Shown here: piece by piece, positions 7,530 to 47,701 of the stretch | Layout of the letters: each line of letters begins with the position of its first letter | How positions within the stretch are numbered: the stretch's first letter is position 1 | Assembly: GCA_905178155.1 (NCBI GenBank) | Contig: CAJINV010000003.1 | Coordinates: forward strand, 1,731,557-1,795,556 | Direction of reading: 5' to 3' | Source: Amoebophrya sp. A120 | Taxonomy: Eukaryota; Protista; Dinoflagellata | DNA: 64,000 bases | Program-made: the position numbers and the translations under genes | The notes under the pieces: model-generated | The model's input: the letters and a program-made list of their open reading frames with translations, nothing else | What the model was told of the DNA's origin: nothing | Databases searched by the model: none

Positions 7530-10500
7530 TTACGAAAACCTTCTACTTGACCTGTTACAAAAAGCACCAGATAAGGTGGAACCAGTTTCCACTTTCTGCG
7601 GCGCGTGATCTGTTCCAGATGCGGCAAGGCCGCCAGCACCAGCAGCTGCAGAAGCCTTTGTCTTCTTGCCTTCGTGGTCCCGCCGACCGCTTGCGTGCTG
7701 TCTTGCGGTACTAGTAGTTTCTGGTGCGACGATCCGGCCACTGGTTGCTGCAGGGCTCTTCGAGCGCTTTTTCTTCCCGATGGCGATGGGTGCCGTTGGA
7801 TCGTCGGCATTGACCTTCACGGGCACCACCACAATGGCACCGGAGCCGTTGCTGGTAGAGTGGGACCCCGTGCCGTCGCCGTTGCTGCCGCTGATGCCGC
7901 CCGCGGTCGTGAAATTCTTCTGCACGGTGAGAGCGGTTTTCGCGGCCTGCAGCTGCAACTCAAACTGCTGCCTCTCGGCGAAGTGGGCCAACTATCCTGT
8001 GCAAAAGTATCGTACTCGTATTGCAATCATGCATTACAAATCCTTTTGTTGAGGTAAATCCGCATTACAAATTTTATTTCTCATGTCGAGGAAATTTGTA
8101 ATGCATTTATACGAGTACGATACTTTTGCAGTTCATACCAACTCGATCTCGACAATGTGCTCCTCCAACTGGTTGATCAGGTGCTGTTGCTGCAGCGAGA
8201 GGGTTGACAGGTTCTGCTGCTGCGCCGGGTTCGTATTGTGGACGATGGTCTGCTGGTTCAGGACATTGTAATTCAGCGTAATCGATTTCGTAGAGCCGCT
8301 TCTGGTTCCCGTTCCGCCCGCTACCGCTTCGGACTTTTGGCGAACCGCCGCAGGGGGCGTCGGCAGCGGGACTGGAGACGGAGCTGGCGACGGCGTCTCT
8401 CCCATGTATTGCGGCTGGTTGACGTCGTCCTCTTCAACGGTTTGGTGCAGCTCTGTAGCAGCATTTCGTTGATGATCCTGTTGCGGAGGCGGAGTCTTTG
8501 AGGAGTGCGTTTGAGATTTTTTACTTCCACCATCTGAAACCACCACGTTCTGCACCTTCGGAGACTCATCTGAAGATTCCAGTGGTCCTTTACCGATATC
8601 GTCCGTGGTGGAACTGGATGCTGGTTTTGTGTTTATCACTGGAAGAACAGCCCCGGTGCTAGTACCGCCCTCTGCATTTGTAGCCGCAGCAGTACTAGAG
8701 TGGAGCCCCTCTTGCGTCGCACCGCTGGAACACCTCGAAACTGACGTTGCAGGAGCTCCTCCTGCACTACTCGTCGCTCCTTTTGGCAGTTCTTGTGAGT
8801 CTCCCCTACTGGCGGGCAGCTGCAGCTGCGCACCATCCTGCGTCGCTGCCTTGGTTTCTTCGGCTACGCCAGACGAGCCGCGCGACTGGCGCGCCGTTCC
8901 GGAATGCTGCGAGTGTGACTGCTGCGACTGCGAGTGCTGCGACTGTGAAAGCTGCTCTTCGCTCAAAATACGGCCCCCGCTGACGCTCGAGGAGTGCGTG
9001 GACGTTGCCCCGTCCACAAGGAATCCCGCCATGATGTTGAAATGACCCATCGTGGAGCTGTTTTCCGAACTCTTTGCTGGCCCGGAGCTGCTCTGCCCAC
9101 TGTAGAGGCCGGTCTCCGAGAGCCGCGTGTTCCCGTGGACCCTCCGGTGGTTGTTCATTCCGCCAGCGCTGCTGCTGTACGTATCACTGGATGTCCCGCG
9201 TTCCAAGAGCTCCATGGCCAGCAGCTGAACCGCCTCGTTTCTGTTGTCGTCCAAGACCAGCTGCCCGGACGACTCAGTAGCCGGCTGTAGTAGTCCCTGT
9301 TGCAGCGTCGTGCTGGATGAAGAAGCCGCGGCGAGCAGCACCGGTCCCGGTGCTGCACCGTTGGTCGCTTTTGAAGATGAACCGTGCAGGAGCAATTCCT
9401 GCTCAAGTTGCGGTTCTCGGCGCGTATGACCACCTGTTCCACCTGGACCTGGCGGAGTCCGTTGTTGCTGCGCGACTGCGTTGGAAGTGGACCGGTGGCG
9501 GTGCCATTGTAGTTCCGCGGGGATGTTCAGCACAGCACTATCCCGCTCGTGTACGAGCGGCTCATCTCGATATCTCTTCGCGTTGATCGTGTCCAGACGA
9601 CTGTTCTCTTTGATGACCGGCTCCACGACGATGTGATCCGCACCCACACCGGTGCCACCTGTGCCGGTAGACGACGACGCGACGTTGGACAAAAAGAAGG
9701 GCAGGTCCGGCGTGTTGTTACTTTGCTCGAGAACCGGAGCGTAGCTGTTGTTCGGCACGAGTCGGAAACCCTTCTCCCACGGGGCTACAAGAACCCCGCT
9801 GCCACCAGCGGTGGTTCCGGACGTGCCGGAAGTAGATTCCTGTTGCGCGTTGCTGCTCACAGAAGGCACAAGATTGTTGTGCCCACTGGTGGTGACCGGG
9901 GGTGGAAAAACGCCCTTCGTCGTGACCGTGAGGTAGTAATTTTCAGTAGACCCACGAGCTGGTGGAGATGACGTGGACGAAGACGACTTCTCCTTCTGAT
10001 TGTGCATGAATCCAGGGGCGGATGCCAGGGGCGGCTTCAACTGCTTTGCCAAAAACCGATTCAGTTTCTCTGGCGCGGACCGGTACATAAGCGTCTCATC
10101 ATCCTCGTCCTCCTCTCCGCTCACAACGGAATCTGAGTCGGAATCTGGGACCTGAAATTTTTTGATAAAGTTGTACTCAAACAACAAGTGTTGCAACTAG
10201 CTATTCGAAATTCAAATATGCGCCGTTTGTGCATTATTTCCTCAAGTGTTGGACGAGACCTCTGCATTTGATGGCTACCGTGACGAGCAGAAGCATTCCA
10301 TATACCTGCCGAACTTGAAGTGCCGCGTCAGTGCCATCCCGCTGCTCGTCCAGTTCTTCTTTCGCAGGCTGCAAGGACGTCCCTGTTCGAGAGTCTTTCG
10401 AGCGCTGCGACGTGGTGAGAATGTCCTTCGGTGCTTGATCTCGACCGCGCGTCCTCGCCGGCGACTCGTCGTCTGCTACATCGGGAGTGCTGGCGCACTG

Positions 10501-16703: not shown

Positions 16704-19655
16704 TTAAAGATCGGGCGCTGGTAGTTGTTCTTGCTCGACCTGCTGGTCTCCTGTCGGAACTTCGTCGTCAATCTGCCACCAGTACATCCAGTCCATGGCA
16801 AGGAAAACCCTTTGATTCGGTCGGTTCTCCCACACGGCACGCACCACTCCGGGCCATTGAGGACTAAAATCGTGCCCGAGCACCAGCCCCCCAGGAACGA
16901 TTTTGGGGATCCAGAGCCGGAGATCCTCCTCGACGCAGTGGTAAAAGTGGCATCCGTCTACAAAAACTGCATGGATGGATTGGTCGGGTACGTTTTTGAC
17001 CTGTAAAGTGCGATCGGATTTTCAGTCCTCTCAGAAACCGTCGTGGTTCTGCGAATTGCAGCATACAACGCTTGTTGTGCATGCGTGGGAGAAGGGAGTT
17101 GGTTTGCATCTATGCAAATGATCATGTTTTGAACGAACGATGAAACCCGAACAAATACAAATGCACAACGATAAATTCTTGTAACGTAAATAAATTCTAT
17201 ACGGCCTCCAATGACGTGGTCGGCCACAGCGTCGCGCGTCCGGGCCCTGACTCTTCGTATATGGCCATGGCGTTCGAGTAGGCGACGGATGGGTCCAACG
17301 TCTGCGAATAATCGCCTGGAAAGGTCTCGTCCGTACCCACGTACGGATCAATACCTAAGGAGGTGGAACGTTCATGCGCAAAGCGAATTTATTATTCGAC
17401 CTGAACGGACCGTAAAATACACTATTCTCACAGCCATGAATAACATCAAAAACAATCAACAAGCCGAAATGTTGAGAATAATCAAAGAAACGCACCTATC
17501 AGCTGAAGTTTGGGGAACTTCTCGAGAAGAAACTTCGAAAAGTGGCCGGCAAACACGCCTACTTCTACCACCCGCAGCTCTTCTACTCCATACTCTTCCA
17601 GCAACGAGTTCACGATTTCCCACCGCATACCAAACTTCTCGCTGAAAAAGAAGCGTGGCTTCGACGTTGGGAGGGGGTACGTGTTGTTGGCGTCGTTAGC
17701 CCCGAGCTTCTCCCATCGCTTTATATTGCCCCACTCCGTGTGAACCACCTGCTTCGCCTCTATCACGTCTTGGACCTGTGCAAAGGACGATAATCGGATG
17801 AGTGCGGAATAGCAATAGGTACTTACCCCGCAGCTGGCACGATTCCCACCTCTTTTTCATTCGCATTCCTATTTGCATATAATATGCCGACGATCATTTC
17901 AATTTTTTCTCTGTTATATCCTTATTGGATTTCGTGCTAGTGCTGGTCCTCTGGCTTGTTCTGCATTCAATCAATACGATTCGGTTTTCCTGTAGTTTCT
18001 AGACTTAAACCACATCGGTTGCAGTCGTACCCACAGAAAGTGGTTAGCCTGCCACGCGTTCCATCGGACCCACTGCGACACGTCGTTGACGACGTCCACG
18101 GAGAGGCGCCAGAAGTATGAACTGCAAAAGTATCGCACTCCCACTCGTATAAATGCATTACAAATTTCCTCAGCATGAGAAATAAAATTTGTAATGCAGA
18201 TTTGCCTTGGAAGCAAGATTTGTAATGCAAGACTTGCATTTGTACGAGTACGATACTTTTGCACAGGATAAGAAGGTCGAGGGCGGAATTTTCCCCGCGT
18301 TCTGGTCCTGCTTGGCCATTATGCATTGCAAAAGTATCCCTTGCACTTGCTTTAGTAAAATTAGCATCACAAATTTCATTGGCAAGAGCATAAGTGGGAT
18401 TTGTTATGCTGACGCAGCTTGGAAAAGACATTTTTCATGCCTGGATGCAATTTATACGAGTCAGTTGCGCGATGCTTTTGCAGTGCATAGCTACCAGGCC
18501 TTCCAGGTACTTTTTGCGCCACTTGCCGACCTGGTCGGCTACGTAGTATTTCAGGGGGCTCAAGTAAAATATCAAGTGCAAATATGTCTGGGTCTGGAAG
18601 AATGGAAGGTTTGGTTGGTTGGTTGGTTGGGTAGCGCCTGTCGCCGGTGCAGGTCCCGCCCTCCATCGATTGCGATCCGGAGTAGCCGGAACACAAGGCC
18701 CTAGTGGCGCAATCAAGGTTTGTCATGCATATTTTGAATGACCCATGACGTCTGCAATGCATGCCCTAGCATCACAGATTTTGAGAGCGCTTTGCGATGC
18801 TTCTACCGCATGAAAAATGTTGCCCTCTCAGCGTAGCACAAACTACTGGAGTCCTCTTGCTGGTCTTGCAATACAAATTTTTTTTAGGATCCAGAGACAG
18901 CATCACAGGTTTAGAACCTTCCCGACCCAGACATATTTGCAATCCATATAAAACCGCTCCTCGCACCGCTCCATGCGGCCCCGGATGTAGTTCGCCGCCA
19001 TGTTGAGAAAGGGCTGGCAGCCCACCGTGTCCCCGTACAGGTTTACCGCGTTCTCGTGGTATTTGTCGTCATCACTGCCGCACAGCACCATGTAGCCCAA
19101 GCTCATGGCCATCAGGTCGAAGGACAGCACCGTTAACGCCTCGCAGCCCCGCTTCTGCACCTTCTCATTCCCAGTGACCTTGCAGGTCAGCATGGTCTCG
19201 TTCACGCCGATAATCAAATCCTCTATCCCAGGACTGGTTTTGGCGGCACTGTAGGCCTGCTCGAGGCAATACTCGCTGTCGGTATTCATGAAAAAACTAA
19301 AACACCCATCCCGATCCATTTTTATTTTTTGCATGACAAGCAGAGGAGTTTATGATTACTTTGCATGACAAATTGTATGGGGATGGGTGTTTTAGTTTTT
19401 TCCTGGATAGTCGGCGAGCGAATGTTCCTCATCGGAGAAGCAATCCAGAATGCTACCAAAGGTACGCGTCGCGAATGGCTGGAGCGTGTAAAGTGACAAG
19501 GGGACGCCGGTGCTGGTGTGGGTATCGTTCTTCGCGCTCGCCAGGGCGAAGTTTGCCACTAGTCGGAAAAATGCGTAAGAAAAGGCTACCAGGCTGCAGT
19601 GGGTCGCGGTTTTTGCCCCCACATTTTGTCTTGGTTTCGAGGACGCTTCACCCAT
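16704..19655 (-). CDS. Class I SAM-dependent methyltransferase (Methyltransf_24-like) with N-terminal signal/anchor; multi-exon
   Basis: Motifs VEVGVFAGHFS, IGIDPY, AVFVDGCHFYHCVEEDL and KIVPGGLVLGHDF after removing GT-AG introns. 5' exons joined through four introners. Start codon and the 17.8-18.0 kb junctions are uncertain. Confidence 0.75.
18116..18270 (+). mobile_element. Introner-like MITE, family 1 (opposite orientation to 7993-8137)
   Basis: tatgaactgcaaaagtatcg...cgatacttttgcacaggata. Direct repeat agaag (18111-18115, 18271-18275). Removal gives PSTF|WRLS. No GT or AG at the boundaries. Confidence 0.9.
18320..18489. mobile_element. Introner-like MITE, family 1-related
   Basis: tatgcattgcaaaagtatc...gatgcttttgcagtgcata. 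Degenerate duplication gccat/gctac. Removal gives EGLVA|KQDQ in frame. Confidence 0.85.
18570..18948 (+). mobile_element. Introner-like MITE, family 2, with a nested insertion
   Basis: IR tgcaaatatgtctgggtc / gacccagacatatttgca. Direct repeat taaaa (18565-18569, 18949-18953). Removal gives ERFY|LSPL. Homologous to 33685-33949 and 46343-46615. Confidence 0.9.
18614..18714 (-). mobile_element. Short retroposon-like insertion with (AACC)n tail nested in an introner
   Basis: Flanked by aaggtttg (18606-18613, 18715-18722). A (ggtt)n run lies at one end. The segment is absent at the equivalent position of the copy at 46343. Confidence 0.65.
19283..19409. mobile_element. Introner-like MITE
   Basis: IR aaaaaactaaaacacccatccc / gggatgggtgttttagtttttt. 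Ends tat...ata. Direct repeat gtcgg (19278-19282, 19410-19414). Two gcatgacaa motifs. Removal gives HSLAD|SEYC. Confidence 0.9.
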
Positions 19656-21918
19656 TCTCCTGCTTTGCGTGTCCGTGTGTCTAGTAGCGTGTGGTGACAT
19701 TCTTGTAGAAGCTGACAGCGTTCTACTTCTCGGAGCTTCGCAGCTACATCGCGCCTCACCTTTCTTGGGTCCACCTGGAGCTTCCATCAAGTCGACAGCT
19801 TCTTTTTTTCTTACTTTCGAGAGAGCAAACGACCAGCAGTTGAGAGACGACGAAAAAGAGCTTCTGGTTGAAGTGCTGCTGCGTGTAGAGTCGCAGGAAG
19901 ACATCGACGAGGGCATGCGCATGGTGCTGACTGTACGAACAAACTCACGAAAAGATATAAAAAGTAAAATCCCAAAGTAAACTCAGGAAAACATATGAAT
20001 ATACACAAACTGTATACAAGATCCACACAACTTGTTTACTTGCTTGAGCTTGGGTACGCTTCGCCCTCGCTGATGTCACACACTGTTGATCGTGGAGCAA
20101 CGACGAGAGGCGGCCCGTTTCGCACTTCTGATGGTGCGCGTAAGGCTCGCGTAAGGCTTGCCGCTGGTACGGCGTCGGTCTTATACGGGTAACGGTGATC
20201 GTATTTGATCCTGCCCCCGTGAAAGCGATCTAGTCAACGTTGTGCGGACGATTAAGAATCATGTGAAGCAGCCACACTCTGCATTCGTGATCTGGGCGAC
20301 CAACTCAAGACGTGAACAAGGATCCTCACGGTGCCTGGGCCACCCGTGGCTGCTGGGCGGGGCGACTTAGCGCGCACCGGCAAGCTCTATTTCCGATGTT
20401 TTGAATGGCGGCGGCGGGCTACAAGCCTTGCGCCGCGTTCACCGTGCATTCTGCACTCTAGCGGATGCTGCTGCCCCTTTGCAGGAGCAACATACAGACT
20501 AGGTCTATGGAAGACGCCACCTTTGGCATGGCACTGCTGTCCCGGCATGGGCTGCGTGCTGCTCGTCATCTGTGCTATTGTCTTCAGTTGCCTGTGCAAT
20601 GTGCGAGAAGATCCGCGCGAGACGTTTTTTCTAACACTAACAGAACAACGGAGAGTAATCGGGGAGTTGTCACGTCGTGAAAATACAACAATCCACGACT
20701 CGTCTCCAGCACGACCTTCCGATATATATTAAGCAATGGCTAATATAATAGAGATCATCATCTTCCAAATCCAAAGCCACGCGTCAAAGCAGTCGCGCGA
20801 AGTCCCCTGCACTGTGTGATCAAAGACGCAGCTATTGTTCCCTGCAGATGTTGTAGATGGTCGATCGCCTGGTTGTACAAGAACCAGGCTCCTAGTCAAT
20901 CTTAATCTAGGAGACTGCGCACACTGTCGCAGCTGTAGGAGATGCTACTCGGAAAATGAAACTCTTCTACGTCCTGTACCTCCAACCGAGGGAAGAAGAA
21001 GAAATCTTTCTTCCGATCTGGAGGATTGCCACGCAATTATGGGTCATGCATTGCATCACTCGGTAAAAGAGAATGATTGTAACTTTGAGTGTTTCGTTTG
21101 TATTTGATAAAATTGCTTCCGGATGAAAAGAAGTGAAGATGAAAACCTATCAGCAAGGGATTGTATCTTTTTCCGTCGCCGCTGTACGGCAAGGAAGCAG
21201 ACGAAGAGCAAGAGCATCTCGATGAATAAATACTTAAAAAACAAACAAGGCTTGCACCACGTTGTTCTCTATCTCTTACTCTTACGAGAAGCGTTGGCTG
21301 CTTGTGTTACTGTGGTTCTTTGTTGCTTATTCGTATTTCTTAAAAAACTTTTGTAATCATACACGTAGATCTCGAATACAGTGCTTGCTCTATCCTTCTT
21401 TTCGCTGTTAGTTGTTGTTTGCAGTTGCTAGTCGCCCGCAGGTCAGTCACTAGTCTTTTGTAAAATACGAAGATACGACATCACTTGGCATTGCACTTTT
21501 CTGCCACCTCCCACCTAGCATAACAATCGCACCGGACAGAAAAAAAGCAAGATGCCTGTCAAGAAGTAAAGAGTATTCTAGTACTTGATCGTTGTTCTTC
21601 CAATTGCCACCTCATCTTGGTAACATTCGCAATGGGCCAAAAGAGGTCAACATAACTTTGCCTGTCATGCAAAAAAGTATTGTATTACTTTTGGTTTTGC
21701 CATCACGCGGAATACGCAAAAACTCACATCAATAGCAGCTCAAAAGCTCCTTGTCAACAAGCTTGGCTGCGTATTGCAGTGCGCACATCATTCACTTTTT
21801 TTTTGCACGATAACTTTTCAGACCCAGATGTAGTTGCAACACATGATGCAGTTTCCTCGTCTAAAAGTCACATTAGCATTACACCACATGGTACAGGTGC
21901 AGGTCTCGTTACAGCAGG

Positions 21919-23925
21919 TTATACAGTTGCCTCGACTCTGAGGTACAGACGATAAGAAATTCCTCGAGTGCCCCCATAGTTCTTTTGATACACTTTCGCA
22001 GTTACGAAAATATGAATTGCAAAACTATCGCACTGATACTACTTGCAAATCGCATGACAAGTTTTTCCCGCAGCAGGAAAAAATGGAGTTCGTAGTGTTC
22101 TTTGAGCCGAAGAAGGTGAAGGAGGTTTGTAATGCATGAACCTTTTTACCCCTCAACCACTATCATCCAGATTTGTAATGCATGACGAACGCTCTTAGTA
22201 CGACTACGATACTTTTGCACAGGATAGACAAGCTTATTGGACAATGTTGTTGTGGTGTCCATCAGCACGAGGAATCCCCCCGCGACGCTCCCGACCACTG
22301 CGCTCCCACCAATAGAAATTCCCAGCTTCCCAAGGTCGTCCTCGGAAAGGTCCGCGCATCGCAGGCAAATGTGTCTGGGTCTGGAAGAAACCGAGTTAGT
22401 TTGTCACACTAGGTCTGACCGAGACCGACGCAAAAATCTGTATTGCATGAGTAGTAAAAGTCCACGCTTTTGGTTGCCAGGAGAGAATACAACTTCTCAT
22501 GCACACAATTGGCATCGACGTCGAGCCATCGCGAAGCTTGTGACGCTAGAGCTCGCAATCCAAACCTTCTGGTTCTGGCAGGTGGTGGTAGTATTTAATG
22601 CTAATGCGCAAGAACCTGAACCCGTGTGACAAACCTTGCAGCTACGATCCTGGAGACCCAGATCGACATTTGCAGCGCATATCACGTAGTGGCAGTCAAC
22701 GGAAAGGCTGCCAACGGCGACGACCGGCCTCTGGTCCGTCTGGCCAAGAAAGAAAATCTTGGCCTCAACAGCGCTCACACGAGGGCGCACAGCTGGGGGG
22801 CGAGGAGGGGCGCCGAAATCGTAGTGAATATGCGCGTAGCGAAAGAGGCCATTTTCGTACATTGGAATTGTACGGTGATACTTCAACCCCTGTCTTCTCA
22901 GGGCCCCGTCGACGAGTTTTAAGAAGTGCAGGCGGAACGAAGCAGGGCGGGCAGCTGGTCCTCGTCCAGCTTCGTGTAGGCCCTGGCGTTCGACGGCTGC
23001 AAGCACGTCGCCCGCGTGCGCGTGGTTCAGGGGGTCCCGGCACTTATTAGCGCCGTTGGCTTATGCACTGCAAAAGTATCGCACTGGACTCTTACTAAGT
23101 AAATTCTTGCGCTAGTTACATATGCACTGCAAATCATGCAAATCTCTTTTCTACTGAGGGAAGTCCGTGGCTAGCAATTTGATCATCATGCTGAGTAAGT
23201 TAGAATTTATCGAGTTTGTCTTTGTGAGTGATGTAATGCGATTCCTACTCCTAGTACTTCTAGTAGGATACTTTTACGATGTCGATGCATATGGCTCCTC
23301 CGTAACACGCCAACTGCGCAGCCAAACCATACGGATGGCCGATAACTGGAAGAGTGTTAGGAAGCTGGTGGTGCAGACTCTCAACAATTCGATGGCTGAG
23401 GATCAGAGATGAAGAGGCATATCTCTCTTGGCTCCGAAGGTTCTCGTAGAATACTTGCCAGCGTGCCTCGAGCTCCGTCTCGACTAATGCTTGCCAGCTT
23501 GCCTCGTCCGTCCAGCTTGGTTGCGGCGTGCCTCCCGGAAACAAAGTGTCAAAAATCTTGTGCAGGGCAAAGGCGTCCTTGTTGGCGAAAGAGGCAACCT
23601 GCGCCCAGATTGCTCTGGGGAGCAGTGGGGACGCATCAACACCACCAGCAGTTGCCCTTGGTGCTAACTGTTCAGGCGCAGTATCTTCCCCATCGTCCGC
23701 GGCCCCAAGACTTGAACTTGATGGCGGCAGCATGCTGGGCACTGCTGTTCCGGTGCCTCTATTGCGCCGGGAGCAGCGGCCTGGGCACCTCCACAACCCT
23801 TGTTGGGACTGACTGCGGCCCTGCACTTTTCCCACAAAGAAAACGGATCCGAGGACAAGGAAAAAAAGAACACGCGGTAAACCGCCGCGCGACATCGGCA
23901 TCGCTGCACTTCCGTTGCTGTTCAT
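21919..23925 (-). CDS. Hypothetical secreted protein interrupted by three introners
   Basis: Signal-like VLFFLVLGSVFFV. Removing 23062-23291, 22357-22681 and 22011-22226 (each plus 5 bp) gives one continuous frame ending ...YRLYLRVEATV*. Confidence 0.75.
22011..22226 (+). mobile_element. Introner-like MITE, family 1
   Basis: tatgaattgcaaaactatcg...cgatacttttgcacaggata. Duplication gaaaa/gacaa (4 of 5). Frame restored on removal. Confidence 0.85.
22357..22681 (-). mobile_element. Introner-like MITE, family 2 (inverted relative to the other family 2 copies)
   Basis: gcaaatgtgtctgggtctggaag...gacccagatcgacatttgcagcgcata. Internal aaaatctgtattgc is the reverse complement of gcaatacagatttt in the copy at 46343. 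Degenerate duplication ccgcg/tcacg. Confidence 0.8.
23062..23291. mobile_element. Introner-like MITE, family 1-related, decayed IR
   Basis: tatgcactgcaaaagtatc...gatacttttacgatgtcgatgcata. Direct repeat tggct (23057-23061, 23292-23296). Removal gives YGGA|NGANK. Confidence 0.85.
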
Positions 23926-24434
23926 GGTTATGATTATGCCTTGTCTTATTTGATGCGCGGGGATACTAGGGTTGAATATTTATTGTAAACTTGAAGAAAG
24001 TAGGAGGAGAAAATGATCGTGATCGATGTAAACGTAAAGTCACTGCTAGTTAGTAGACGAGCCCAATCTTGTTGCTGTTACTGAGAAATCAAGGTGAAGC
24101 AGGTGCAAGTCTCCGCGATTTTGGCTTTGAAGCTCGACGAAGTAATCTCCTGCAAGAATCAGAATTCTACACGAAACGTCAACTCAACAATGGATTAGAT
24201 TCTACACGTATTTATAGTAAGTTAAAGCGGAAGTAGCTGGACTTGCAGTCAGGTGAAGATAACCATAACTCTGCAGCGAAAAGGAAAAGGCAAGGTAGCC
24301 GCAATGAAGGTAATCACATCACGACGAGCTCCTGCGCCTGCCGAGCGAGGATCATGGCCCGCTTTATTTTATTTTATTTTTTGCGCTTGTTTTGATCTTC
24401 AAGTTCCTGTTTCTCTGACTCTTATCTCGGTGAA

Positions 24435-26223: not shown

Positions 26224-26767
26224 GACTCTTATCTCGGTGAAAGTGATGTCGTTCGCTTTCGAAACATTTTCATCTTGATGGGGATCAGCATTTATTCGTG
26301 AGCGCTGCAAGAGCACCTTCGATATTTTTCACAAGGAAGAGAAATCATAGTACAAAGAATTCACGAAAAGGAAAACATCTTCAAAGAAGTCAGAGACTGA
26401 CACAGCTGCCATTGCCAGTCCGTCCAGATCATAACGATAGAAGTGGCCAGCGGCAGCGCTCCAGCTGGTGCGCGAGCTTTGACACGGCTGCTGGGGAAAG
26501 CATTCGCGAAGCAGACGCGAATAGACAGATGCAAAAAGGAGGACGGACCTACCGTCTACGAACCAGCAGCGCACGAGGACAACACGGAACCCAGGTAATT
26601 CCGGTATGTTGAAACCTCGTCGCTTCTTCAACAAATTGAAATTTCTTATACCGCGTCTGTGTCTGAAGAAAAAAAATATCAACGCGGCGACGTGCCTTCT
26701 TCAGTTTCGTCTTCCTTCATGATGCGTTAGGGTAGTTAGCGTCATATCAATATTTTCACAAAAATCT

Positions 26768-27844: not shown

Positions 27845-28321
27845 GTTTCATCACATTCATCATTGCGTATAACATAATGTCAAGATCTATGTATCATGAT
27901 CTTCATCTTTCTTGTTCTTGGATAAGAGACTGTGACAAAAAGGACAACAAGCTGCATCAGCCTGATTCTGATCGCATTACCGACGGGAACAATATTGAGG
28001 CGCCACGGCACACGACTGAATGATCCTTGGATCCATTATCTTAACCTGGAGGAATATTCTTTCGTTGGTGCTGGCTTCTGCTTCGTCATGGACCCTCTTT
28101 GTCGGCATCAATGAATAATCCACCGAAGTCACGGAAACCCCTCTACAACGCACTTCGTCTTCGGTAACGCTTTTTTTTGCCTCATCAAAATGCGCAAGCG
28201 CAAATCATACAGGAGCGAAAAGACCCACCTTAATGAACAAGAAAGTTTCACTTTCATCAATACCGTAGGGATAACCGACAGTTGTATCGATGAAGTGCCT
28301 TACCTATAAAATCAATCATCT

Positions 28322-33130: not shown

Positions 33131-36100
33131 TCAAAGCCGTGCTTTCGCCGGGAAGTCGCGCATGGCCATCCTGACTCCTAAGTCGGCCATAATCTCTTCG
33201 CTGCCGCCCAATATGGAGGCGAACTTGTAGGTCCGGTTGAATTTTTCGCAGCCGTCGCCCAGGCCGGTCTTTGTGATCGCCCGGCCGCCGAACACCTGGC
33301 ACGCTTCGTCTGCCAGCATGGTCATCGTGCGCGTGGTGTTGTACTTCAGAAAAGAGATCGGGCCCGCGAGCTTCGCGACCTGGGTGAAGTAGTATGAGAG
33401 TGCGCAACTCCCCCTCCCCCTCATTTGTGTGGCATGAGCAGCAATACAAATGCCTGCACATCTGGAGCCTGTGCTTCACAAGTTCACGGGCCGATGGTAG
33501 TACTGACTTCTTGAAATTTGTCATGCAAACAGCGCCACAGGGGCAGGGCAGCAATAGCAAATGGCTTTGCAGTTTTGCATGACAAATGAGGGGGAGCAGG
33601 GGGTGTTGTGCACTCTCATAAGTAGTCCATTTTGTGCATCTGGTAGGTGATCTGTTCGAGGTTACTTTGCACCGCCTCCACCGCTATCAAATGTAAAAAT
33701 GTCTGGGTCTGGAAGAGTCCGAAATTTCTTATGCTGTTTTTGCATGACACAGAATGTCTGTCATGAAAGCCCTAGCATCACACATTTCTAGAGGCCTTCC
33801 TGATGCCGATTCCGCATGACAAATGCCCTCCACGCGTAGCATAAACCGGACTCCTCTACTTGCTGGTCATGCAATACAGAATTTTTTAGAGTCCAAAGTT
33901 AGCGTCACAAGTTCCAAACTTCCAGACCCAGACACTTTTGCAATCCATAACCGCCGCAATCATTTTGGCGAGCTTCTGCCGGATCACGGGTTCCTCCGCG
34001 AGAATTTTGCCGAAGACCTCGCGCTGCATCGCCCACTGGAAAGTTTCCTGGACCAGCTGCCGCATGATGCCAAGACACTGGCAACTGATGAACCACCGCT
34101 CGTGGTTGAAGCTATCCAATGGAAAGATGTTCTTGTTCATCCCAAACACGTGCAAAATGCATCGCAAATTTCGCTTTTGCTTAAGTACTTCGAGGATATA
34201 TATCACTTGTCATGCTAAAGTAAATAATAGAATTTTTGAAGAATATAGGAAACTTTTGGCATGCAGATGAAACCGCATTCTACTATTACGTGTGCCTGTA
34301 GTGAACAAGAATGTCGTGATATTTATCATTTCCAGTGGATAAAAGTTCGCCATGATGCACTTGAAGCCTTGGTTTTCCTTGCCCATGAGATTCGCGACCG
34401 GCACGTACACATCGTCGTACATTACCAGTGCCGTGCCCGCGCATTTCGAGTAGCTGGTTTGAATCTGCTTGGTGGTCACATCGTTGCCCTGGTTGTTGGC
34501 GAGCTGTTTGGCGTTACGCGGGACCAGCATCATGCTGATGCCTTTCATACCCGGGCCCCCGGTGCGCACCGCCGTGACGAAGTATGCAATACAAATTTCC
34601 CGCACATGTACAAAATGCATGACAAATTTCGCTATCGCTACCTTGCAGAGTCCAACTTGTCAGGCAAACTAGGATCGAAGCCAAGTTTTGTCATGCGGAG
34701 ACGACCGCATTTGTACGTGTACGGGAAATTTACTGTGGATACGAAGTAGTCGGAGAACATGCCGTTGGTGATCCATTTTTTCACGCCATTGAGGATGTAG
34801 TACCCGCCGCACGCGGATTTTTTCCCAGTCAGCTCAATGCGGGCGACGTCGGACCCGGCGGACGGCTCCGAGATCGCGAGGCAGATGCGTTTCTGGCCGA
34901 GCAGGCACTCGGAGGCCACAGTTTGCGCCAGGTCGGGCTTCGAGAAAATCAGAACCGGGGGGAGGCCGATGCAGAGCCCGGCGCCCAGGCCGTCGCCGTA
35001 ACCCGGCTGGCGTAAGCGGCCCAGTGCCTCGTGTGCCAGCATTTCGTGAAAGACATCAAAGTCGTCCGGCGATACGTTTGCTGGCAACTTGATGCCCAAC
35101 TCCTTCGCGAGCTGATAGTCATGCGCGGTAGTAATAGTGAGCGTGTTTTCTTTATCTTTTGGAAGTACTTATAGGCGCCCAGCAGCAGCTGGAAAAGTGA
35201 AACGCACTCGCCCGCGCGAATGCTGCGGCAGCTTTGCGGCAAGAACGCCCGGCGGCACGAACCAACGAAAAGCAAAAAAATCCGCGGCGCAGGGATCGAA
35301 CCTGCACCACCCAGCCGCTAGCGGTCTTCTGAAGCCACGGGGGACTCCTTCGAATTCCGAAGGCTCTACTATACACGAGGCGCCCCCTCCTACTTGGTAG
35401 GACGGCCATCGTCAGACTTTAACTGGGTGCACTACCAATTGTGCTAGCCGCGGTGTTGCCTTGAACGGAAACGACTTCACCCGGGTCGCCAGAATAGCTT
35501 TGCTAAACACGGGCATTCGGGCAAAAAATGCGACAAAAAACCAAAAGTTATTCGATAAGGAAGGAATTCCTTTGTTCTTGTGGGTGAAAAACTACACAAA
35601 TAACTGAGAAAATCAAAATGTCGAACTCCAACAAGACCAAGGGTGACGAAGATTAATAATTGTATGTACCGGCATTGCGGCGGTTCCGATCCGGGAGGCG
35701 AGATAGCCAAACGCGCCCATTTTTTCGTACACCTCCTTGGTCGGGTATTCGTCGGCAAGTTCCCCCTCAACGGCATCCTCGAGCAACTCGTGCTTTACGA
35801 ATTCGCGGCACGCACGGTAGAACTCCTTGTGGCTGTCGTTCATGTACGGCGAAACCGCCCATCCCTCCCGGTTTAGAGGTGCTTCCGCGTAAGGCACCTC
35901 ACTGACCACGTCCTCCTCTGCCGCTGAGGGGATTGCCTGTTTGTGTTTAGTTTTCTTTATTGCAGAAAAAGTGCATATATTTTTAACTACAAGTACAACT
36001 TCTAACTGTGTCCGTATGGGTCTCGTCCCTTGTCGTCAGCATCACGTAGTTCACGAAGTGCACAGGTAATAGCTCTGGTTCCCAGAAGGCAAGAGCAAGA

Positions 36101-36477
36101 CTAGAACTAAAAGTCTCCCTATGCACAAAATATCGAAGAAGCACTAGAACTACGTCCTCCGCCGCGAAATTTTCCAGGGATCCCACGCGGAGCCGCTTGT
36201 ACTTATCCAAGATCGCCTTGTTGTGCAGCGCGTAGAACTGCTTGGAGGCGTCTTTTCCCGCCACGGCCAGGAGGACAGCCCGGCCACCCGGGTGGAGCTG
36301 CGAAAACTTGGTGAGATCGTAGACCTGGCCATTGATGGCGATCCACAGGTCATTAGGTTGGTCGTGCTTCTTCAACTCCTCGAAGCTCACGACCTTGTTG
36401 ATGCCAACATTTTCTGATTTTGCTGTCTTGGTAGTAGAGGACGACGAGCTGCTCGAGGACGAGGCAACCGTCGCCAT
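33131..36477 (-). CDS. Acyl-CoA dehydrogenase with N-terminal cytochrome b5-like heme domain
   Basis: WIAINGQVYDLTKFSQLHPGG (cyt b5). CLAISEPSAGSD, LNGVKKWITNG, ANFNHERW, QREVFGK, ACQVFGG and ILGGSEEIM (ACAD). Four introners plus two other introns. Confidence 0.93.
33393..33620. mobile_element. Introner-like MITE, family 3
   Basis: tatgagagtgcgcaactcccc / ggggtgttgtgcactctcata. Direct repeat agtag (33388-33392, 33621-33625). Removal gives KMDY|FTQV. No GT-AG. Confidence 0.92.
33685..33949 (+). mobile_element. Introner-like MITE, family 2
   Basis: tgtctgggtctggaag / cttccagacccagaca. Direct repeat accgc (33680-33684, 33950-33954). Removal gives IAAV|EAVQ. Confidence 0.92.
34113..34341. mobile_element. 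Introner-like MITE
   Basis: tatccaatggaaagatg...ttcttgttca / tgaacaagaa...tttccagtggata. Degenerate duplication gaagc/aaagt. Splits the conserved ANF|NHERW motif. Confidence 0.88.
34583..34741. mobile_element. Introner-like MITE
   Basis: tatgcaatacaaatttcccg / cgggaaatttactgtggata. Direct repeat cgaag (34578-34582, 34742-34746). Removal gives SDYF|VTAVRT. Confidence 0.92.
35281..35453 (-). tRNA. tRNA-like gene, anticodon AAA by canonical numbering, with a 101-nt insert at 37/38
   Basis: Acceptor CCGCGGC/GCCGCGG plus A73, D stem GCAC/GTGC, anticodon stem CCCAG/CTGGG, T arm GCAGG-TTCGATC-CCTGC. A and B boxes intact, T7 run directly downstream. Lies in GT-AG intron 35112-35669 of the ACAD gene. 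Confidence 0.8.
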
Positions 36478-38309: not shown

Positions 38310-41300
38310 TCACGCACCCCAGGCATCGAAAGGCGGTTGGGGGCTAGAGAACCCGGGCCACGTATCGCTGATAAACTTGGACACCCCGGCTAAGTGGGTC
38401 GGGGTCTCCTCCGGCGCCGGCTTCTGGTCCGCAGGACAACGGCCGTAACAGTCAAAGCCTCTCCCTCTCTCCAGCGATGGCTGACTCCATCCTGGCCAAT
38501 AACGACGAGCTGGCTTGTTCTCCTTGTCGCCCGTCCTCCCAACGGAGGATGCTGTGGTAGAGGACTCCGCGTTATGAACGGACAAAATACAATTTGACCC
38601 CAGAAAGAGCATATACTGTCACGAGAATGAAACTAGCGGCCTACGAGAATGAGGAAGCAAATGGGGCTCCACCCGCTTACAACTTTTCCCGCTCCGGACG
38701 GGGTAGACGCTGCACTTTTCATAGGGCTTGTGCCCGTTTTTTCGCGCAAAGCTACTTGTTTTGCGCGCGGTTTTTCTTCGCTCGAGCGGTCGGGTGGCGA
38801 AAAACTGCAATACAAAATTGGAAAACCGGCCGGATGCAGATGCAGCTTTTCTCCCCGCAGGAGAAAAGCCGCATCACAAATTCGCAAACTCCGCTTCCTC
38901 CGGTTGGAGAAAGACCGCGCCTCCGGTTCTCCGCATTACAAATGCGGAAAGGTGCCCATTGCCATTGCATTTGTAATGCGGAGAGCCCGACCTTTCAAAG
39001 GTCGGGCTCTCCGCGTTACAAATGCAATGGGCGGATGAAAGGTCGGGCTCTCCGCATTACAAGTGCGGAGTGCGGGGCTCCCCAGAGCTCGGGGTTCGGG
39101 TTGTGGGTAAATGGGGAAAGGGGAAAGCCCGGAGCCTCGGGTTCTCCGCAACCCGGGCTCTTCTCCGCATCACAAATCCCTCCTTTCGCCACAAGCGGCT
39201 GCCGCAGCCGCTGCACACCGTCGTGCGTAACCTTTTGCGCGATGCTATCCCCAAGCAGCAATATTCGCGCTCCCGATAGCATCGGGCATGAGGTTATGCT
39301 GCATGGTATCGCTGCGTGCGAATCCGAATTTCCCTCGCAGCCATACCATGCTGCATTAGGTTACGCCCGACCTGTGGCTGTCTTTTTCTGCCCCCCTTGG
39401 GCGTTTGTGCAGCTTCTTTTTACCCTCAAACACGACCGGACTCCGGGGAAAACTGTGGCTTAGGGAGGAAGCACAACTTTTCCGCGGACCACCCCGAGCC
39501 GGCCCCATGGTCACCAAAAGGCGCCCGCGAGACACGCCGAGGCCGCGCGCAAAATTGCAGCGGTTGTCTTTGTTTCGCAAGCACGCACGCCCGTGAGAGT
39601 GGCCTCCCCATTTTGCGCGCCGGCTGCATCTTCTACGCCGGGCCCGGGCCGGGGGGGTTCTGATTGATGGGAGGCCGTCGGCCGTTCATTCTTTCTCTTC
39701 GCTACCTAGGCTACTCAAAATGTCGCGGCGCGACCGGCGCTTTTATTTTAAGGGCCAGCGCACTCTCGTGCACATTTGGCCCGGGGGTGTCGTGCGAAAA
39801 AAACGCGGGAAACCAGGATGGACCAACGCAAAGAAGGCCACCAACCACCCCCACAAACCGGGGCGGAAGACAGACTGAAAGACACCAGGTGGGCCCGGCA
39901 ACACAATATGCGGGGCGCGCCCCGCCTGTTTAGTTTCTGCGATAGAATCACCGGGCGGGGCCCGCTTTTGCGCGTCGCCTGCCTTTCTTTTCGTTCCCTG
40001 TCCGTCGCCCCGGCCCCGGCAAACTTGGGCACATTGCGCGAAGCCCTTGGCGTGGTGGGGCTTGCACGGGGTGGGACAATTGCCGCCGCGCGCCCAAAGC
40101 TGTGCGCGGCCAGCGGGCTCTGTCTTCTCTGTGGACCGAAGGGCCGGCGCATGTATGTAACGGAGGGCGAAGGCCGCCGGTACTAGATGCATTGGTGGCC
40201 GCGTCATGCAATAGCGCAGCTCCTGCCCGCTGGCCAACAGGCTGGCCGCGCCCGTCTCGGCCCACAATGTCCAGGGCCCGCCGGCCGGCACGGCTTGTGG
40301 CGGGCGCGCGCGTGCGGGCAGGCGGTGCCTGCGCTGCCACTGCATCGGCCTTGCCAATATCCGCCAGCCCCGCCTCCTCGCCTCCCGCTTTCGCCGTTGC
40401 CCCCGGCCCCACTGCGCCTGGGCCCCATCCTGCGGGCGCCGAACAATTTTCAGAAAAAAGAACGTCGGCAAAGCGCTGGGGCCCCCCGGCCGGAAAGACC
40501 TTGGGCAGAAATTTGCCCGAGGGGCGCCACGCGCCTGCCGCCTCCCGCCCCCCCTCTGCCCTTCTGGCCGGCCCCGGTATTGCCGTCGGCGCGCTGCATT
40601 TTTGGCCAGCGCCCGCAGCTTTCCCCCAGTCCCCGGGCATTTCCCGTGTGCTTCCGGGTTGCTGCGGGCAGGGTCCCGTAACTTGCGGCGCGAGAATGAT
40701 TCTCGTGGCGGGCTTCGCATCTGCATGAAATTCCTTGCCATTCTCGCGCAAACGTAGTGTTTCCGCGAGAATGAAGAGGTGTTTCACGTCGAAAGCTAGG
40801 CCCTGCGAAAATCATTCTCGCACCGCTCTTTCTCGGGTCCGCCCGGCGCGGTTCCGAATCCCACTTGCCCGAGCGGAAATATCGCGTAAACCCGGCTCGC
40901 GTCGGCCCGGCGGGCAGCTCCGCGCGAGGCATTGGGGCAGTGCCGCGCAGGGAGAAACAGGGAAGCGGGCGCGGCTTGGGGGGCGACATATGCGGGCTGG
41001 CGCAACGAACGGAACAAGGCGCCGGCGTGTGCCTCCCAATCTGACGACCACCAGGCAGCGGGCCCGCGCGGGCGCTGAATACAACAGGCCCGGGCGTCGG
41101 GCGGTTTCTTTTCAATCGCCAGAGGCTGTGGCCGGCCGCTGCTCGACGCGGCCGGCCCGCCCGCCCGTTCGTTGTATTCTATCTGGGGCCGCCCAGAAAG
41201 CCAACCGCGCCCATTGTTTGTGGCAAGAATGAACGGCGGCGCGCGCGCTGGGAGTTGAGGCCGGCGGGGTGGGTGCAAGCCGAACTCCCAAGGCCTGACT

Positions 41301-43568
41301 GTCATGCCGCCGCGGCCCGGTCCCTCCGACAGGGCTCACGACAGTGGGCTCGGAAGATGCCCTGCCAAACATGTAGAAGACATCGGGCCCGGGGCCCCCG
41401 CTTCCGGTTTTCAGTTTGTTAGTTCGGCCCCGGCTCCGCGGTTGCGCGCGATCGAAGGTCTGAGGAAGGTGCGTCACAGCGAATACTTGGCTGGGCCTGC
41501 CATGGCAGTGGCCCTGCCCCACGAATCGCCGGGGCCCCCGCCTCCTTCACGCCTTGTCGGCCGCCCGGGCAAGGCGGGCCACCAAGCTGGTATGCGTGCG
41601 CCCGTCGGACTCTCTCCAAAGGCATGCGCATAACCGGCACCGAGCCGCCAGCGGGTCGCGCTTTTTGCAGAGGCGCCCTCCCCCCTCCACTTGAAGCATC
41701 GCTACCGGCGCTGCCCCAGAAACACCGCCAGCGCACCGGCGCCCCTAGCTCCGCACCCTTTCTTTGGACCCCAGTAGGAAAAGAAACGGAAAAAACAAAA
41801 CGAAAAGCCACGCAGCTTGCCACAAAAAGCGCGCCGGCTACACAACGAAGGCGCGCGCTGGCCCCTCATTGCTAGCGACCGGACCCTCGGGGCCCGGCGC
41901 AAAAACGGCAAACGCCAAAAATCGGCCGTGTCTGCGAAGGTGTTTGTATGCTTGCGAAACACCGAACGCCGCGGGAATTTGGGCCATTGACTGCACGAGG
42001 GCCCGCGCGGCCCCGTGGTTTGATGCGGGAAAAGGGGCACCGCGGGGCCGGCTCGGGGTGGTCCGCGGAAAAGTTGTGCTTCCTCCCTAAACCACAACTT
42101 TCCCCGGAATCCGGTCGTGTTTGAGGGTAAAAAGAAGCTGCACAAACGCCCAAGGGGGGCAGAAAAAGACAGCCACAGGTCGGGCGTAACCTAATGCAGC
42201 ATGGTATGGCTGCGAGGGAAATTCGCACGCAGCGATACCATGCAGCATAACCTCATGCCCGATGCTATCGGGAGTGCGAATATTGCTGCTTGGGGATAGC
42301 ATCGCGCAAAAGGTTACGCACGACGGTGTGCAGCGGCTGCGGCAGCCGCTTGTGGCGAAAGGAGGGATTTGTGATGCGGAGAAGAGCCCGGGTTGCGGAG
42401 AACCCGAGGCTCCGGGCTTTCCCCTTTCCCCATTTACCCACAACCCGAACCCCGAGCTCTGGGGAGCCCCGCACTCCGCACTTGTAATGCGGAGAGCCCG
42501 ACCTTTCCGCCCATTGCATTTGTAACGCGGAGAGCCCGACCTTTGAAAGGTCGGGCTCTCCGCATTACAAATGCAATGGCAATGGGCACCTTTCCGCATT
42601 TGTAGTGCGGAGAACCGGAGGCGCGGTCTTTCTCCAACCGGAGGAAGCGGAGTTTGCTAATTTGTGATGCGGCTTTTCTCCTGCGGGGAGAAAAGCTGCA
42701 TCTGCATCCGGCCGGTTTTCCAATTTTGTATTGCAGTTTTTCTCCACCCGACCGCTCGAGCGGAGAAAAACCGCGCGCAAAACAAGTAGCTTTGCGCGAA
42801 AAAACGGGCACAAGCCCTATGAAAAGCGCAGCCTCTACCCCGTCCGGAGCGGGAAAAGTTGTAAGCGGGTGGAGCCCCATTTGCTTCCTCATTCTCGTAG
42901 GTCGTTAGTTTCATTCTCGTGACAGTATATGCTCTTTCTGGGGTCAAATTGTATTTTGTCCGTTCATACTCCGCGTCGGAGGAGACTTCCAGAAACGACT
43001 CCACGGGCTCGCCCTTGGACCAGAATGCTTGCTCCTCCGCACAACTCACGACGCCGTCGTTGTTGATGTCCGCGCCGGCGCGCAAGAGCCGCTGCGTCTG
43101 CACAGAGCACTCAATGGCGTCCAGATCCGCCATCGTGACTAGGGCCGTATCATTGATGATCTTTTCGATGATCTTGACGGAAACTGATTCCGCCGCTGCG
43201 AGCATCGGCGGCTGTTGTGTGTGAAGTTTGGTGTGAAAGCGAATGAGCTGATGTCCTCAATGTACTTATGTCACAAGAAAAGAAAGAGCTTTATGTATAT
43301 GTCACAAAAGAAAGAGCAACAGCTATTCCTACTGCCACGCGGACGGAACAAATGCTGGACCTCCTCAATACAGAAATACCATGATGACATCGGAGCTTTT
43401 GCGCGCGGTTTGCTGCAGCGACTGCGGCATCCCTTCCGCGCCGATCTTCTTGGTGCTCGTCCCAGTGAGGTCGAATTTGCCCGCTTCCATGTCCGTCATC
43501 GCGGCTTGGTTACCTCGGACATAGAGCGCCAAACAGCTCACAACGATTTTCGGGAAAAAAAGCCGCAT
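38310..43568 (-). CDS. Putative secreted EF-hand-like protein interrupted by a 4.4-kb foldback element
   Basis: Signal-like MRLFFPKIVVSCLALYV, EF-loop-like DINNDGVVSCAE. Removing 38573-42968 plus one 8-bp duplicate joins SSDAE|SSTTAS in frame with ORF 38310-38612. Confidence 0.6.
38573..42968. mobile_element. Foldback DNA transposon with about 930-bp terminal inverted repeats
   Basis: Arms 38573-39506 and 42044-42968 are near-identical reverse complements. Ends tatgaacggacaaaa...ttttgtccgttcata. Target duplication ctccgcgt (38565-38572, 42969-42976). GC-rich 2.5-kb interior with no recognisable transposase. Confidence 0.93.
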
Positions 43569-45704: not shown

Positions 45705-47701
45705 TCACGTGAAACCGTCGCCGTCCCCCGTATTCGTGTTAGTTGCTGGATTGTGTAATTTAACTTTGCTTGCTCGCGACGAGGGTGGCCGCGAGGTACT
45801 TCGAACCCCAGGAGGTGGCTGTGGTTGCGGCACCACTTTGCCCAGGTCATCTAGGTCCACCAGTGGTGGGAGTGAGACCGACGACGGTCCTTTCTCTGGT
45901 GACTCTGCAGTGACCCGTTCATCCGGAAGTCTCCCTTGTGTTGGCTGCGGCGCAGGTCTATTGTCGCGACCTTCCACTTCAGTTACAGTTCCCGTTTCTT
46001 CTTCCCCTCCGACACGACCTGCGCCAGCTTGTAGTTGTAGTTCCAGCGGCAGCAACGTTTCCGCTTTCATCGCTTGTGCGTTGTCGTCAGAGTGCGATCC
46101 TTGATGATCGTGTTGCTGTGACGTTTTTGGTTCGTCTACTGTGGCCCCGCCTGCGCCTTCGTTTTTCCCCTTCTGCAGAAGCAAAGCATCTTTTGCTCCA
46201 GTACTGCTAGCCTTAGTCTCGTCGTGGGCAAGAACATAGTTCCGCTCCTCCAGTACCTCCGTCAAGTCGGCGCCGTCATCTTCGCCTTCTTCGTTCCGTT
46301 GGCGTATGCCGTCCTGGATCTCTTGCGCATACTTCTCAACGCGATCCACTGCAAATGTGTCTCGGTCTGGAGGAAAGCGAGGTTTGTCATGCACGTTTTT
46401 TATGTCCCACGATGCCTTGCCTGTAATGCATGACCTAGCATCACAGATTTTTAGACGTCGGCTTCCTGATGCCTATCCCGCATGAGAAATGGCGTACTGG
46501 CGTAGCACAGACTGGACTCCTCTGGCTGCTGAAGCAATACAGATTTTTTTCGAATTCAAAGACAGCATCACAAGTTGCAACCTTGTTCCAGACCCAGACA
46601 TATTTGCGATGCATAAACGCGATCCACCAGATCTTCGTCGCAGTCTCGGCGCAGGTGCTTCTCCTGCTGAAGTTGGAGTCGGAGCTCGTAGAAAATTTCC
46701 AGGCAGTAGGCGTGGAACTCCTCTGCCGGAGTGACCTGCACGTCGGCATTCGGACTGGTATCAACGACGGGCGACACGCTGCGGACTGCGTTGAGGGAAT
46801 GAAGCTTCTCGGCAGTCTCAGCGACATACTCATCCATCTTCGTGTTCAAGGTCGGGAAAAGCGTGTCCAAGGTGTCGGAGAAGACCTTGCATAATAAATC
46901 AGAATAAAGAGGGAACTTCAACATTTAGTTTTTCATTTTTCCGCCTCGAAAAATGAGAACACGTCCGTGAGGACTCGGCAGCTGTGTCGTCACCATTTTC
47001 TATTACACCTTGAACTTCTAGCTGTGAGTGGGTTCTTTTGCAGCTTTTACTTGTAACTTTAGCTAGACCAAGATCATCAAATTCAAATTTGAAGTTGTAC
47101 AACTTTGTCGACAGCAGCAGCGCATGGTGTTGCTAAGTACCTGGTGCCCTTGTGGAGCATGGTCTCGTTCCTTCTCGAACACTTTCCGAATGCTCTCCGT
47201 GCAGTTTTCCAATCGAGACAACTCCTGTTGCAGTTGCTTGATATCTGCGGCGTTTTCCGTGTTCTGTTGCGCTTTTTTCACTTCGAGAGCTTCGCAGCGA
47301 ACGTGCAGTGCGCGAAATGAATTTTGCAGCTTCTCCACTTTTGCCTGCACCTTCTGCTCGACGTGAAGGAAAATTTCGGTCCCCGCGTCTTCGTGCAAGT
47401 GGCGAAGTGCCTTGTAAGCCGCTTCCCTCCGTCCCTGTTCTGTGGCCAGCGTGCGTTCCAAGAGGTCGAGGTGCGCCTTCGCCGCTTTTTGCTCCTCCGG
47501 TACTTCCTCTAAGGCGGCAGCGTCTCGCTCGCTCTGCAGCTGCTGGGCGCATTCTTGCAGCGCGGCCGACCCTGCTGCTAACTTCTGCCGCAAGCGTGCA
47601 TTCGGACTGGAGGCTTCGATTTTTGGCGATGGAGGAAATTCTAGCTTTTGCTCCTGCAAAAGAGTTGGCGACGAGCAGGCAGGAGAAGCTGTACTGGCCA
47701 T
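45705..47701 (-). CDS. Hypothetical coiled-coil protein, multi-exon
   Basis: ORFs 47063-47701, 46568-46924 and 45705-46394. The last two join via introner 46343-46615 (LVDRV|EKYAQ). Confidence 0.7.
46343..46615 (+). mobile_element. Introner-like MITE, family 2
   Basis: tgcaaatgtgtctcggtctgga / tccagacccagacatatttgc. Direct repeat aacgc (46338-46342, 46616-46620), extending to the 12-mer aacgcgatccac. Confidence 0.9.

Follow-up and report, generated by a model that had tools for sequence, protein, structure and literature searches.

Introner elements of the dinoflagellate Amoebophrya sp. A120 were described by Farhat et al. (2021; PMC7789003) as introns with inverted repeats of 8-20 nt that start with TAT, direct repeats of 3-5 nt, a hairpin and no GT-AG ends. 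A total of 29,850 repeated non-canonical introns were counted in A120; the intron analysis was confined to lengths of 40-1000 nt, and the position of the borders was left unknown or variable. Statements on this and the other papers cited refer to the parts of them that were accessible. Here, a 64,000-nt stretch of A120 DNA (assembly GCA_905178155.1, contig CAJINV010000003.1, positions 1,731,557 to 1,795,556 of the forward strand; hereafter the window) was analysed, and the A120 evidence given below is that of this one 64-kb window, not of the whole genome. The window holds 15 short elements of this class within coding sequence and a 16th of 4.4 kb. Joints in transcripts make it probable that the cut is set by a ruler anchored in the element ends, falling 1 nt upstream of the 5' TAT and 4 nt downstream of the 3' ATA (the -1/+4 offset), whatever bases stand there.

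Neither the element class nor these loci are new: Farhat et al. describe the class, and GenBank gene models join across the loci (CAD7939170.1, CAD7939154.1, CAD7939176.1 and CAD7939172.1). The organism, the TAT ends, the hairpin and the lack of GT-AG are the same as in that paper, but the fixed -1/+4 offset and a 4.4-kb element with an 8-bp duplication are absent from its accessible parts, although Table S4 there implies the 5' half of the offset. No statement of the -1/+4 rule, of the 8-bp case or of the enzyme was found in the literature searched, most subscription journals and the figures of Farhat et al. being out of reach. What is new is confined to a sharper, testable rule; the elements themselves are unremarkable examples of an oddity already in print.

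Nonconventional introns of euglenids and diplonemids share with the A120 elements non-canonical ends, a stem at a fixed asymmetric offset, repeats like target-site duplications (TSDs) and a wide range of lengths; an origin from MITEs (miniature inverted-repeat transposable elements) has been proposed there too (PMC6221363; PMC11282704). An end-joining stem at fixed asymmetric offsets was also found here, with -1/+4 fitting 5/5 informative copies, but the lineages are unrelated and the offsets differ: the stem pairs +4..6 with -8..-6 in euglenids (PMC6221363) and +2..4 with -7..-5 in the A120 elements. Release as full-length circular RNA, later than that of canonical introns, belongs to the euglenid type, and excised circles have been reported for it (PMC11282704); the RNA joints of the A120 elements come from contigs. 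Introns of Fritillaria borealis are likewise MITEs with terminal inverted repeats (TIRs) and TSDs that are removed without GT-AG, but they are spliceosomal and prefer the ends AG-AC and AG-AT (PMC11282704), whereas the A120 elements have no preferred end dinucleotide. The TIR introners of Aureococcus, Micromonas, Symbiodinium and Polarella are intron-making non-autonomous DNA transposons as well, with codon gain on insertion (+12 bp) known in Aureococcus, but they carry or co-opt GT/GC and AG, and the A120 elements do neither; long A120 introner families with TIRs have also been reported (PMC9860276; PMC12130899). The TA..TA termini are shared with IS3EU/GingerRoot DNA transposons, in which duplications are usually of 6 bp (PMC10045372); the duplication length here is 5 bp, with 0/129 related copies perfect at 6 bp; the ends fit this group but the duplication does not.

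Elements and flanking repeats

Fifteen elements of 127-379 bp with inverted ends of the TAT...ATA type lie in minus-strand coding sequence between positions 7993 and 46615, as an initial annotation of the window had claimed; it gave partial coordinates, and we infer that its 15 elements are those listed below, which are named by their first position. In transcript sense, TAT starts all 15, and ATA ends all but 22357 (ATG) and 46343 (ATC). The 5-bp direct repeat that had been ascribed to every element is perfect in ten and imperfect in five, with matching bases numbering 4/5 at 22011, 3/5 at 18320, 22357 and 34113, and 2/5 at 29031. Removal of an element together with one repeat does restore the frame, giving open frames of 939-4515 nt. 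In the list, t counts how many bases of the transcript-upstream repeat are lost along with the intron, and joints are those in the RNA contigs of four runs.

7993-8137, minus strand: introner of family A, in opposite orientation to 18116; perfect repeat GTTGG (transcript sense); predicted intron GT..TG; annotation CAD7939154.1
12959-13279, minus strand: introner; perfect repeat CAAGG; the -1/+4 cut would give GT-AG by coincidence of the target
18116-18270, minus strand: introner of family A; perfect repeat CTTCT; predicted intron TT..TC; joint 18110/18271 in 4/4 runs
18320-18489, minus strand: introner; imperfect repeat GTAGC/ATGGC, t = 0-2; joint 18314/18490 in 4/4 runs
18570-18948, minus strand: introner of family B; perfect repeat TTTTA; joint 18564/18949 in 4/4 runs
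19283-19409, minus strand: introner of 127 nt with a hairpin z of -6.2; perfect repeat CCGAC; joint 19277/19410 in 4/4 runs
22011-22226, minus strand: introner with ends like family A; imperfect repeat TTGTC/TTTTC, t = 0-2; joint 22005/22227 in 2/4 runs
22357-22681, minus strand: introner with ends like family B (3' ATG); imperfect repeat CGTGA/CGCGG, t = 1-2; joint 22352/22683 in 3/4 runs
23062-23291, minus strand: introner; perfect repeat AGCCA; joint 23056/23292 in 2/4 runs
29031-29241, minus strand: introner; decayed repeat TACGA/TAGAT, t = 1 exactly (AT..GA); joint 29026/29243 with zero ambiguity in 3/4 runs
33134-36477, minus strand: cytochrome b5/acyl-CoA dehydrogenase (ACAD) gene; 7 exons, 2 canonical GT-AG introns and the next 4 introners
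33393-33620, minus strand: introner in ACAD (MDY/FTQ); perfect repeat CTACT; joint in 3/4 runs; CAD7939170.1
33685-33949, minus strand: introner of family B in ACAD (AAV/EAV); perfect repeat GCGGT; joint in 3/4 runs
34113-34341, minus strand: introner in ACAD (ANF/NHER); imperfect repeat ACTTT/GCTTC, t = 1-4; joint 34108/34343 in 4/4 runs
34583-34741, minus strand: introner in ACAD (YFV/TAV); perfect repeat CTTCG; joint in 3/4 runs
38573-42968, minus strand: 16th element, missed by the initial annotation; foldback-like insert of 4396 bp, TATG...CATA, perfect 8-bp duplication; CAD7939172.1
46343-46615, minus strand: introner of family B (3' ATC) in a gene of the SF-assemblin family; perfect repeat GCGTT; annotation CAD7939176.1

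When a perfect 5-bp repeat and complementarity at 10 or more of 14 end bases were required, a scan found 9 matches, against 0-2 per shuffle in 10 dinucleotide shuffles. With 11/14 required there were 4 matches against 0, and at 9/14 the scan was noisy (15 against 1-8, with 6 of the 15 outside the element list). Elements 22357 and 34113 were missed by the scans and spotted by eye, and were later confirmed by RNA joints. The elements, among which families A and B are present, are repeated, the DNA depth over them being 100- to 1000-fold that of unique bins, which is a measure of depth and not of copy number. Elements 7993 and 18116 are 84.5% identical in reverse orientation within same-strand genes, and both are removed, the first by annotation and the second by its RNA joint.

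Four exons of the window, that of ACAD included, match named A120 proteins at 100%. CAD7939170.1 maps exactly in seven exons and joins across the four ACAD elements, and aligned ACAD orthologues, including that of A25, are gap-free at these sites; the splitting of ACAD by four elements was thus rightly recognised. In all, GenBank models join across 6 of the 15 short elements (7993, 46343 and the four in ACAD). The suggestion that these are Amoebophrya introners is borne out by the A120 host genome, the inverted repeats starting with TAT, the direct repeats, reported as 3-5 nt long, the families and the removal without GT-AG. For a 'methyltransferase' label there was no Pfam match in three exons scanned from two candidate genes. 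The sole Pfam match was SF-assemblin for P0122, with none for P0121, four exons or ten open reading frames (ORFs) of the 4.4-kb element.

Removal from transcripts and position of the cut

The RNA evidence consists of Logan contigs of four runs (X1-X4) from one sample of one study, typed 'RNA?', and covers positions 17950-34900. Joints in these contigs drop exactly the element plus 5 nt at all 12 elements of the region, each in two to four of the four runs. The runs have traits of mRNA, namely removal of a canonical GT-AG intron in X3, whose loose end at 18029 corresponds to window 17744-17773, and, in X2, a poly(T) end at position 30770. In run X6, read as DNA from its even cover, 22357, 23062 and 34113 are bridged in place at ordinary depth among the matches listed. 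Of two raw-read runs, X9 gave 96 reads, all partial and almost solely from one element end, and X10 gave none; neither covers the genes.

Removal as introns without a need for GT-AG, as first proposed, is therefore supported by the joints at 12/12 elements, and by the gene models that cover 7993, 46343 and all four elements in ACAD. An exact GT-AG is found only at 12959, and 7993 offers GT-AG with one extra codon, both as described before; to these an exact GA-AG at 29031 can be added. Canonical-looking alternatives are not used. At 7993, the annotated CAD7939154.1 has ELAH and lacks the additional codon expected from the nearby GT-AG; at 46343, CAD7939176.1 reads RVEK, and an in-frame GC-AG a few bases inside would give RVYK; at 29031, the RNA joint passes by the GA-AG available at t = 2. 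At the observed offset, only one of the 15 elements has the GT/GC-AG ends of canonical U2 introns. Neither retention as the sole form nor the use of cryptic GT-AG or GC-AG sites, named by the initial annotation as findings that would speak against such introns, was observed.

The position of the cut can be seen only in the imperfect copies, because perfect repeats hide it. The RNA joints allow t values of 0-2 at 18320 and 22011, 1-2 at 22357, exactly 1 at 29031 and 1-4 at 34113, and the sole value common to the five is t = 1, which places one intron border 1 nt upstream of TAT and the other 4 nt downstream of ATA. With five uniform offsets, any shared register would arise by chance with a probability of 0.051, and all five at t = 1 with a probability of 0.009, a figure that holds only when t = 1 has been fixed in advance by the GT-AG at 12959; this lone GT-AG case also has the offset t = 1. 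When all 15 elements are cut at t = 1, the introns start with TT (5), AT (4), GT (3) or CT (3) and end in assorted dinucleotides, while T, A and T at +2..+4 and A and T at -7 and -6 are invariant (15/15) and G stands at +5 in 9/15. All nine predominant non-canonical A120 classes in Table S4 of Farhat et al. begin with N-T, which agrees with t = 1; the placement of borders within the repeats is not stated in the accessible parts of that paper (PMC7789003).

The 4.4-kb element (38573-42968) has inverted arms of ~935 bp, identical at 915 of 930 aligned bases, around a GC-rich core. The gene model CAD7939172.1 (229 amino acids) removes 4401 nt, that is the element plus 5 nt, as one intron and reads SDAEESSTT, with one codon gained according to the annotation. 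This reading needs t = 0 or 1, and t = 2 and the available GT...AG yield other products. If the duplication guided the join, 8 nt would be lost and SDAESSTT would be expected. It is unlikely that the 8-bp repeat is a decayed 5-bp duplication, since three of four bases would have had to change next to arms that are still 98% identical. No Pfam match was obtained in its ten long ORFs, no second copy of its end in metagenome_contigs, and no empty-site orthologue of its gene was found. A weak likeness of 45 nt to the arms was seen at 3361-3405.

Since copies with 2-4 of 5 matching repeat bases fit the same offset, and since the element with the 8-bp duplication loses 5 flanking bases and not 8 in its gene model, the ends of the element rather than the duplication likely set the cut. 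The initial annotation had excision directed by the terminal hairpin and the duplication and not by dinucleotides; the independence from GT-AG stands, and the duplication as a guide is not supported.

Related copies of family A were sought in the public assembly JACKZZ01 with the 22-nt family-A end as query, which gave 140 loci; 129 unique complete copies were kept, the exclusions being 13 matches without a left end, 1 near a contig end and 2 duplicates, and 6 copies longer than 175 nt were set aside later. The evidence on these copies is their DNA sequence and the calls of a codon model, which on the window elements was right in strand for 15/15 and in strand and frame for 14/15. Among the JACKZZ01 copies, 81/123 were called for strand (42 uncalled) and 74/123 for strand and frame (49 uncalled). 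A perfect 5-bp duplication flanks 97 of the 129 copies, and one of 6-10 bp flanks none. The 81 strand-called copies stand in both orientations (56 and 25, a 2:1 bias with respect to the transcript), with G at +1 in 25, a 3' AG in 9 and GT-AG in 1, and all 16 possible 3' dinucleotides occur among them. An open-frame test on the 129 copies hardly separated the removal lengths and was not used (copies with at least 45 open codons: 67 for +5 and 65 for +8, with 56 for +3, 50 for +4, 52 for +6 and 47 for +7).

Several points weigh against a fixed, end-anchored cut. The register comes from five elements in one window, of which 29031 alone fixes t by itself. All RNA is of a single sample and study with contigs typed 'RNA?', and contigs lose minor forms, so that low-level sliding or retention could escape notice. 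The 4.4-kb element, 7993 and 46343 rest on transcript-derived gene models, which possibly share the data of the runs. Finally, mismatches between the repeats of JACKZZ01 copies fall on codon positions 1, 2 and 3 in the numbers 6, 1 and 12, as compared with 6.2, 5.6 and 7.2 expected. Synonymous change in an exonic copy could explain the depletion at second positions, and the pattern might also mean some sliding, with both repeat copies sometimes translated. Mismatches are also rare at repeat position 5 (1/19).

Candidate machinery

The elements would have been inserted as non-autonomous TIR elements by a DDE transposase. In the pre-mRNA, the inverted ends would fold back and bring the exons together, and the usual 5-bp duplication would merely make the loss of 1+4 nt seamless; an 8-bp duplication would be tolerated because 3 nt remain after 5 are lost. 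No transposase was found in A120 by Farhat et al., in the parts accessible (PMC7789003). The predicted folds pair the ends within the first 14 bases in 15/15 elements. In 3/15, all family-A copies, the outermost TAT/ATA pairs are predicted to be weak (p 0.06-0.27), and the 'terminal hairpin' is therefore better read as TAT/ATA ends plus a stem just inside them. An internal motif, GCAW[GCT]ACA, occurs at 11.9 per kb in the elements and 0.25 per kb outside, though it was picked by eye and the comparison is partly circular. It was rejected as a branch point, since it occurs on both strands and its distance to the 3' cut varies; it may be a transposase-binding repeat. A search of the 15 window elements for a branch point gave no motif at a fixed distance near the 3' cut.

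For the chemistry we tentatively favour, with slightly less than even confidence, cleavage and ligation guided by protein and without the spliceosome, of the kind proposed for the nonconventional introns of euglenids. The reasons are that neither an end base nor an orientation is preferred, and that the euglenid introns share the offset-stem type and reportedly come out as circles. If so, A120 would quite possibly have a second, spliceosome-independent splicing system, convergent with that of euglenids, which finds the folded ends of any TAT...ATA transposon, in either orientation and up to 4.4 kb or more in length, and cuts with a sequence-blind ruler of 1 nt and 4 nt.

A serious possibility is that a remodelled U2-type spliceosome makes the same end-anchored cut: it would no longer need G at +1 or AG, would read TAT at +2..+4 and would find the 3' site at a fixed distance after the stem; it competes for the enzyme step only. 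According to the accessible parts of PMC7789003, A120 retains 83 of 89 spliceosomal proteins and U2, U4, U5 and U6, while U1 small nuclear RNA was not detected, and Fritillaria offers a precedent (PMC11282704). Two further observations fit a spliceosome. N-TAT(G) aligns with GTA donors, the bases at +2 to +5 resembling those of the canonical donors in the window (GTAGTT, GTACAT, GTATTT and GTACTT); in addition, the JACKZZ01 copies have an excess of phase 0 at t = 1 (36/74, p = 0.014), as in spliceosomal introns. However, the 81 strand-called copies show no preference for G at +1 or for AG, both orientations are removed, the internal motif lies on both strands at no fixed distance to the 3' cut, and this cut falls 4 nt past a stem in which any branch point would be hidden.

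It is unlikely that the direct repeat guides excision by matching of its two copies, with joining anywhere in the duplication, as in the version of the initial annotation. The loss of exactly one repeat length in 15/15 short elements, the variable borders in Farhat et al. (PMC7789003) and the depletion of second-position mismatches in JACKZZ01 copies would be expected from it. However, 29031 is joined where neither side has homology, one offset fits 5/5 imperfect copies, and the element with the 8-bp duplication loses 5 nt in its gene model.

It is very improbable that the elements are lost at the DNA level, by somatic or programmed excision in the stage that is transcribed, and not from RNA. 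The elements resemble DNA transposons, and elimination of TA-bounded DNA is found in other alveolates, but runs X1-X4 bear mRNA traits, the DNA-like X6 contigs keep three elements in place, as given above, and a transposase would be expected to act right at the ends of the element, with t = 0 or 5, and not at t = 1. Least probable of all are false joints from template switching by reverse transcriptase in dead or intron-retaining genes, for although the RNA evidence is all cDNA-based and a hairpin with a short direct repeat is a classic substrate of such switching, removal occurs at 12/12 sites, the joint at 29031 bypasses the sole bases that are homologous there, and the elements hold stops in most frames, yet the joined ACAD is gap-free against its orthologues.

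Other features of the window and meaning of the offset

All genes examined are on the minus strand, in keeping with published reports of co-oriented blocks of genes in Amoebophrya. Starting in the last ACAD exon, contigs continue without a break for ~2.4 kb up to a poly(A)-like end near 30750-30770, a long 3' untranslated region (UTR; 30750-33133). A motif of ~32 nt occurs by eye twice, at 30571-30602 and ~4885-4915, with one copy ~170 nt past a poly(A) site; many DNA and RNA contigs match it alone. A tRNA-like sequence with a long insert was seen by eye at ~35260-35455 inside a canonical ACAD intron, and Rfam and ARAGORN gave no matches there or elsewhere in the window. A lone remnant like a family-B end lies in a 3' UTR at 21812-21845 and is kept in RNA contigs; a suspected decayed family-B copy at ~21600-21860 did not align above shuffles and was not used as a control. 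The raw RNA reads of run X9, which bears the same species label, match no gene of the window but only the family-B end at 33681-33716, always with the same flanking context. The family-B end motif was not found in viral_contigs. The region ~24430-26200 is repeated, with RNA and DNA contigs of other copies mapping at ~94-99% identity, and is possibly a transposon relic. Another transposon possibly lies in GC-rich intergenic sequence at ~3200-4900, which has a 43-nt inverted repeat (3770-3812/4590-4632).

How tens of thousands of non-GT-AG introns are removed in Amoebophrya is a standing question, and the original paper could not place their borders. If true, a fixed -1/+4 offset would supply exact intron ends for lariat or circle sequencing and for minimal substrates, and would fix gene prediction in this lineage. 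Under such a ruler, the length of the duplication (5, 8, ...) would decide which transposons can become introns, and if the system is indeed independent of the spliceosome, transposons with duplications of 5 bp or 5+3n would be invisible to coding exons.

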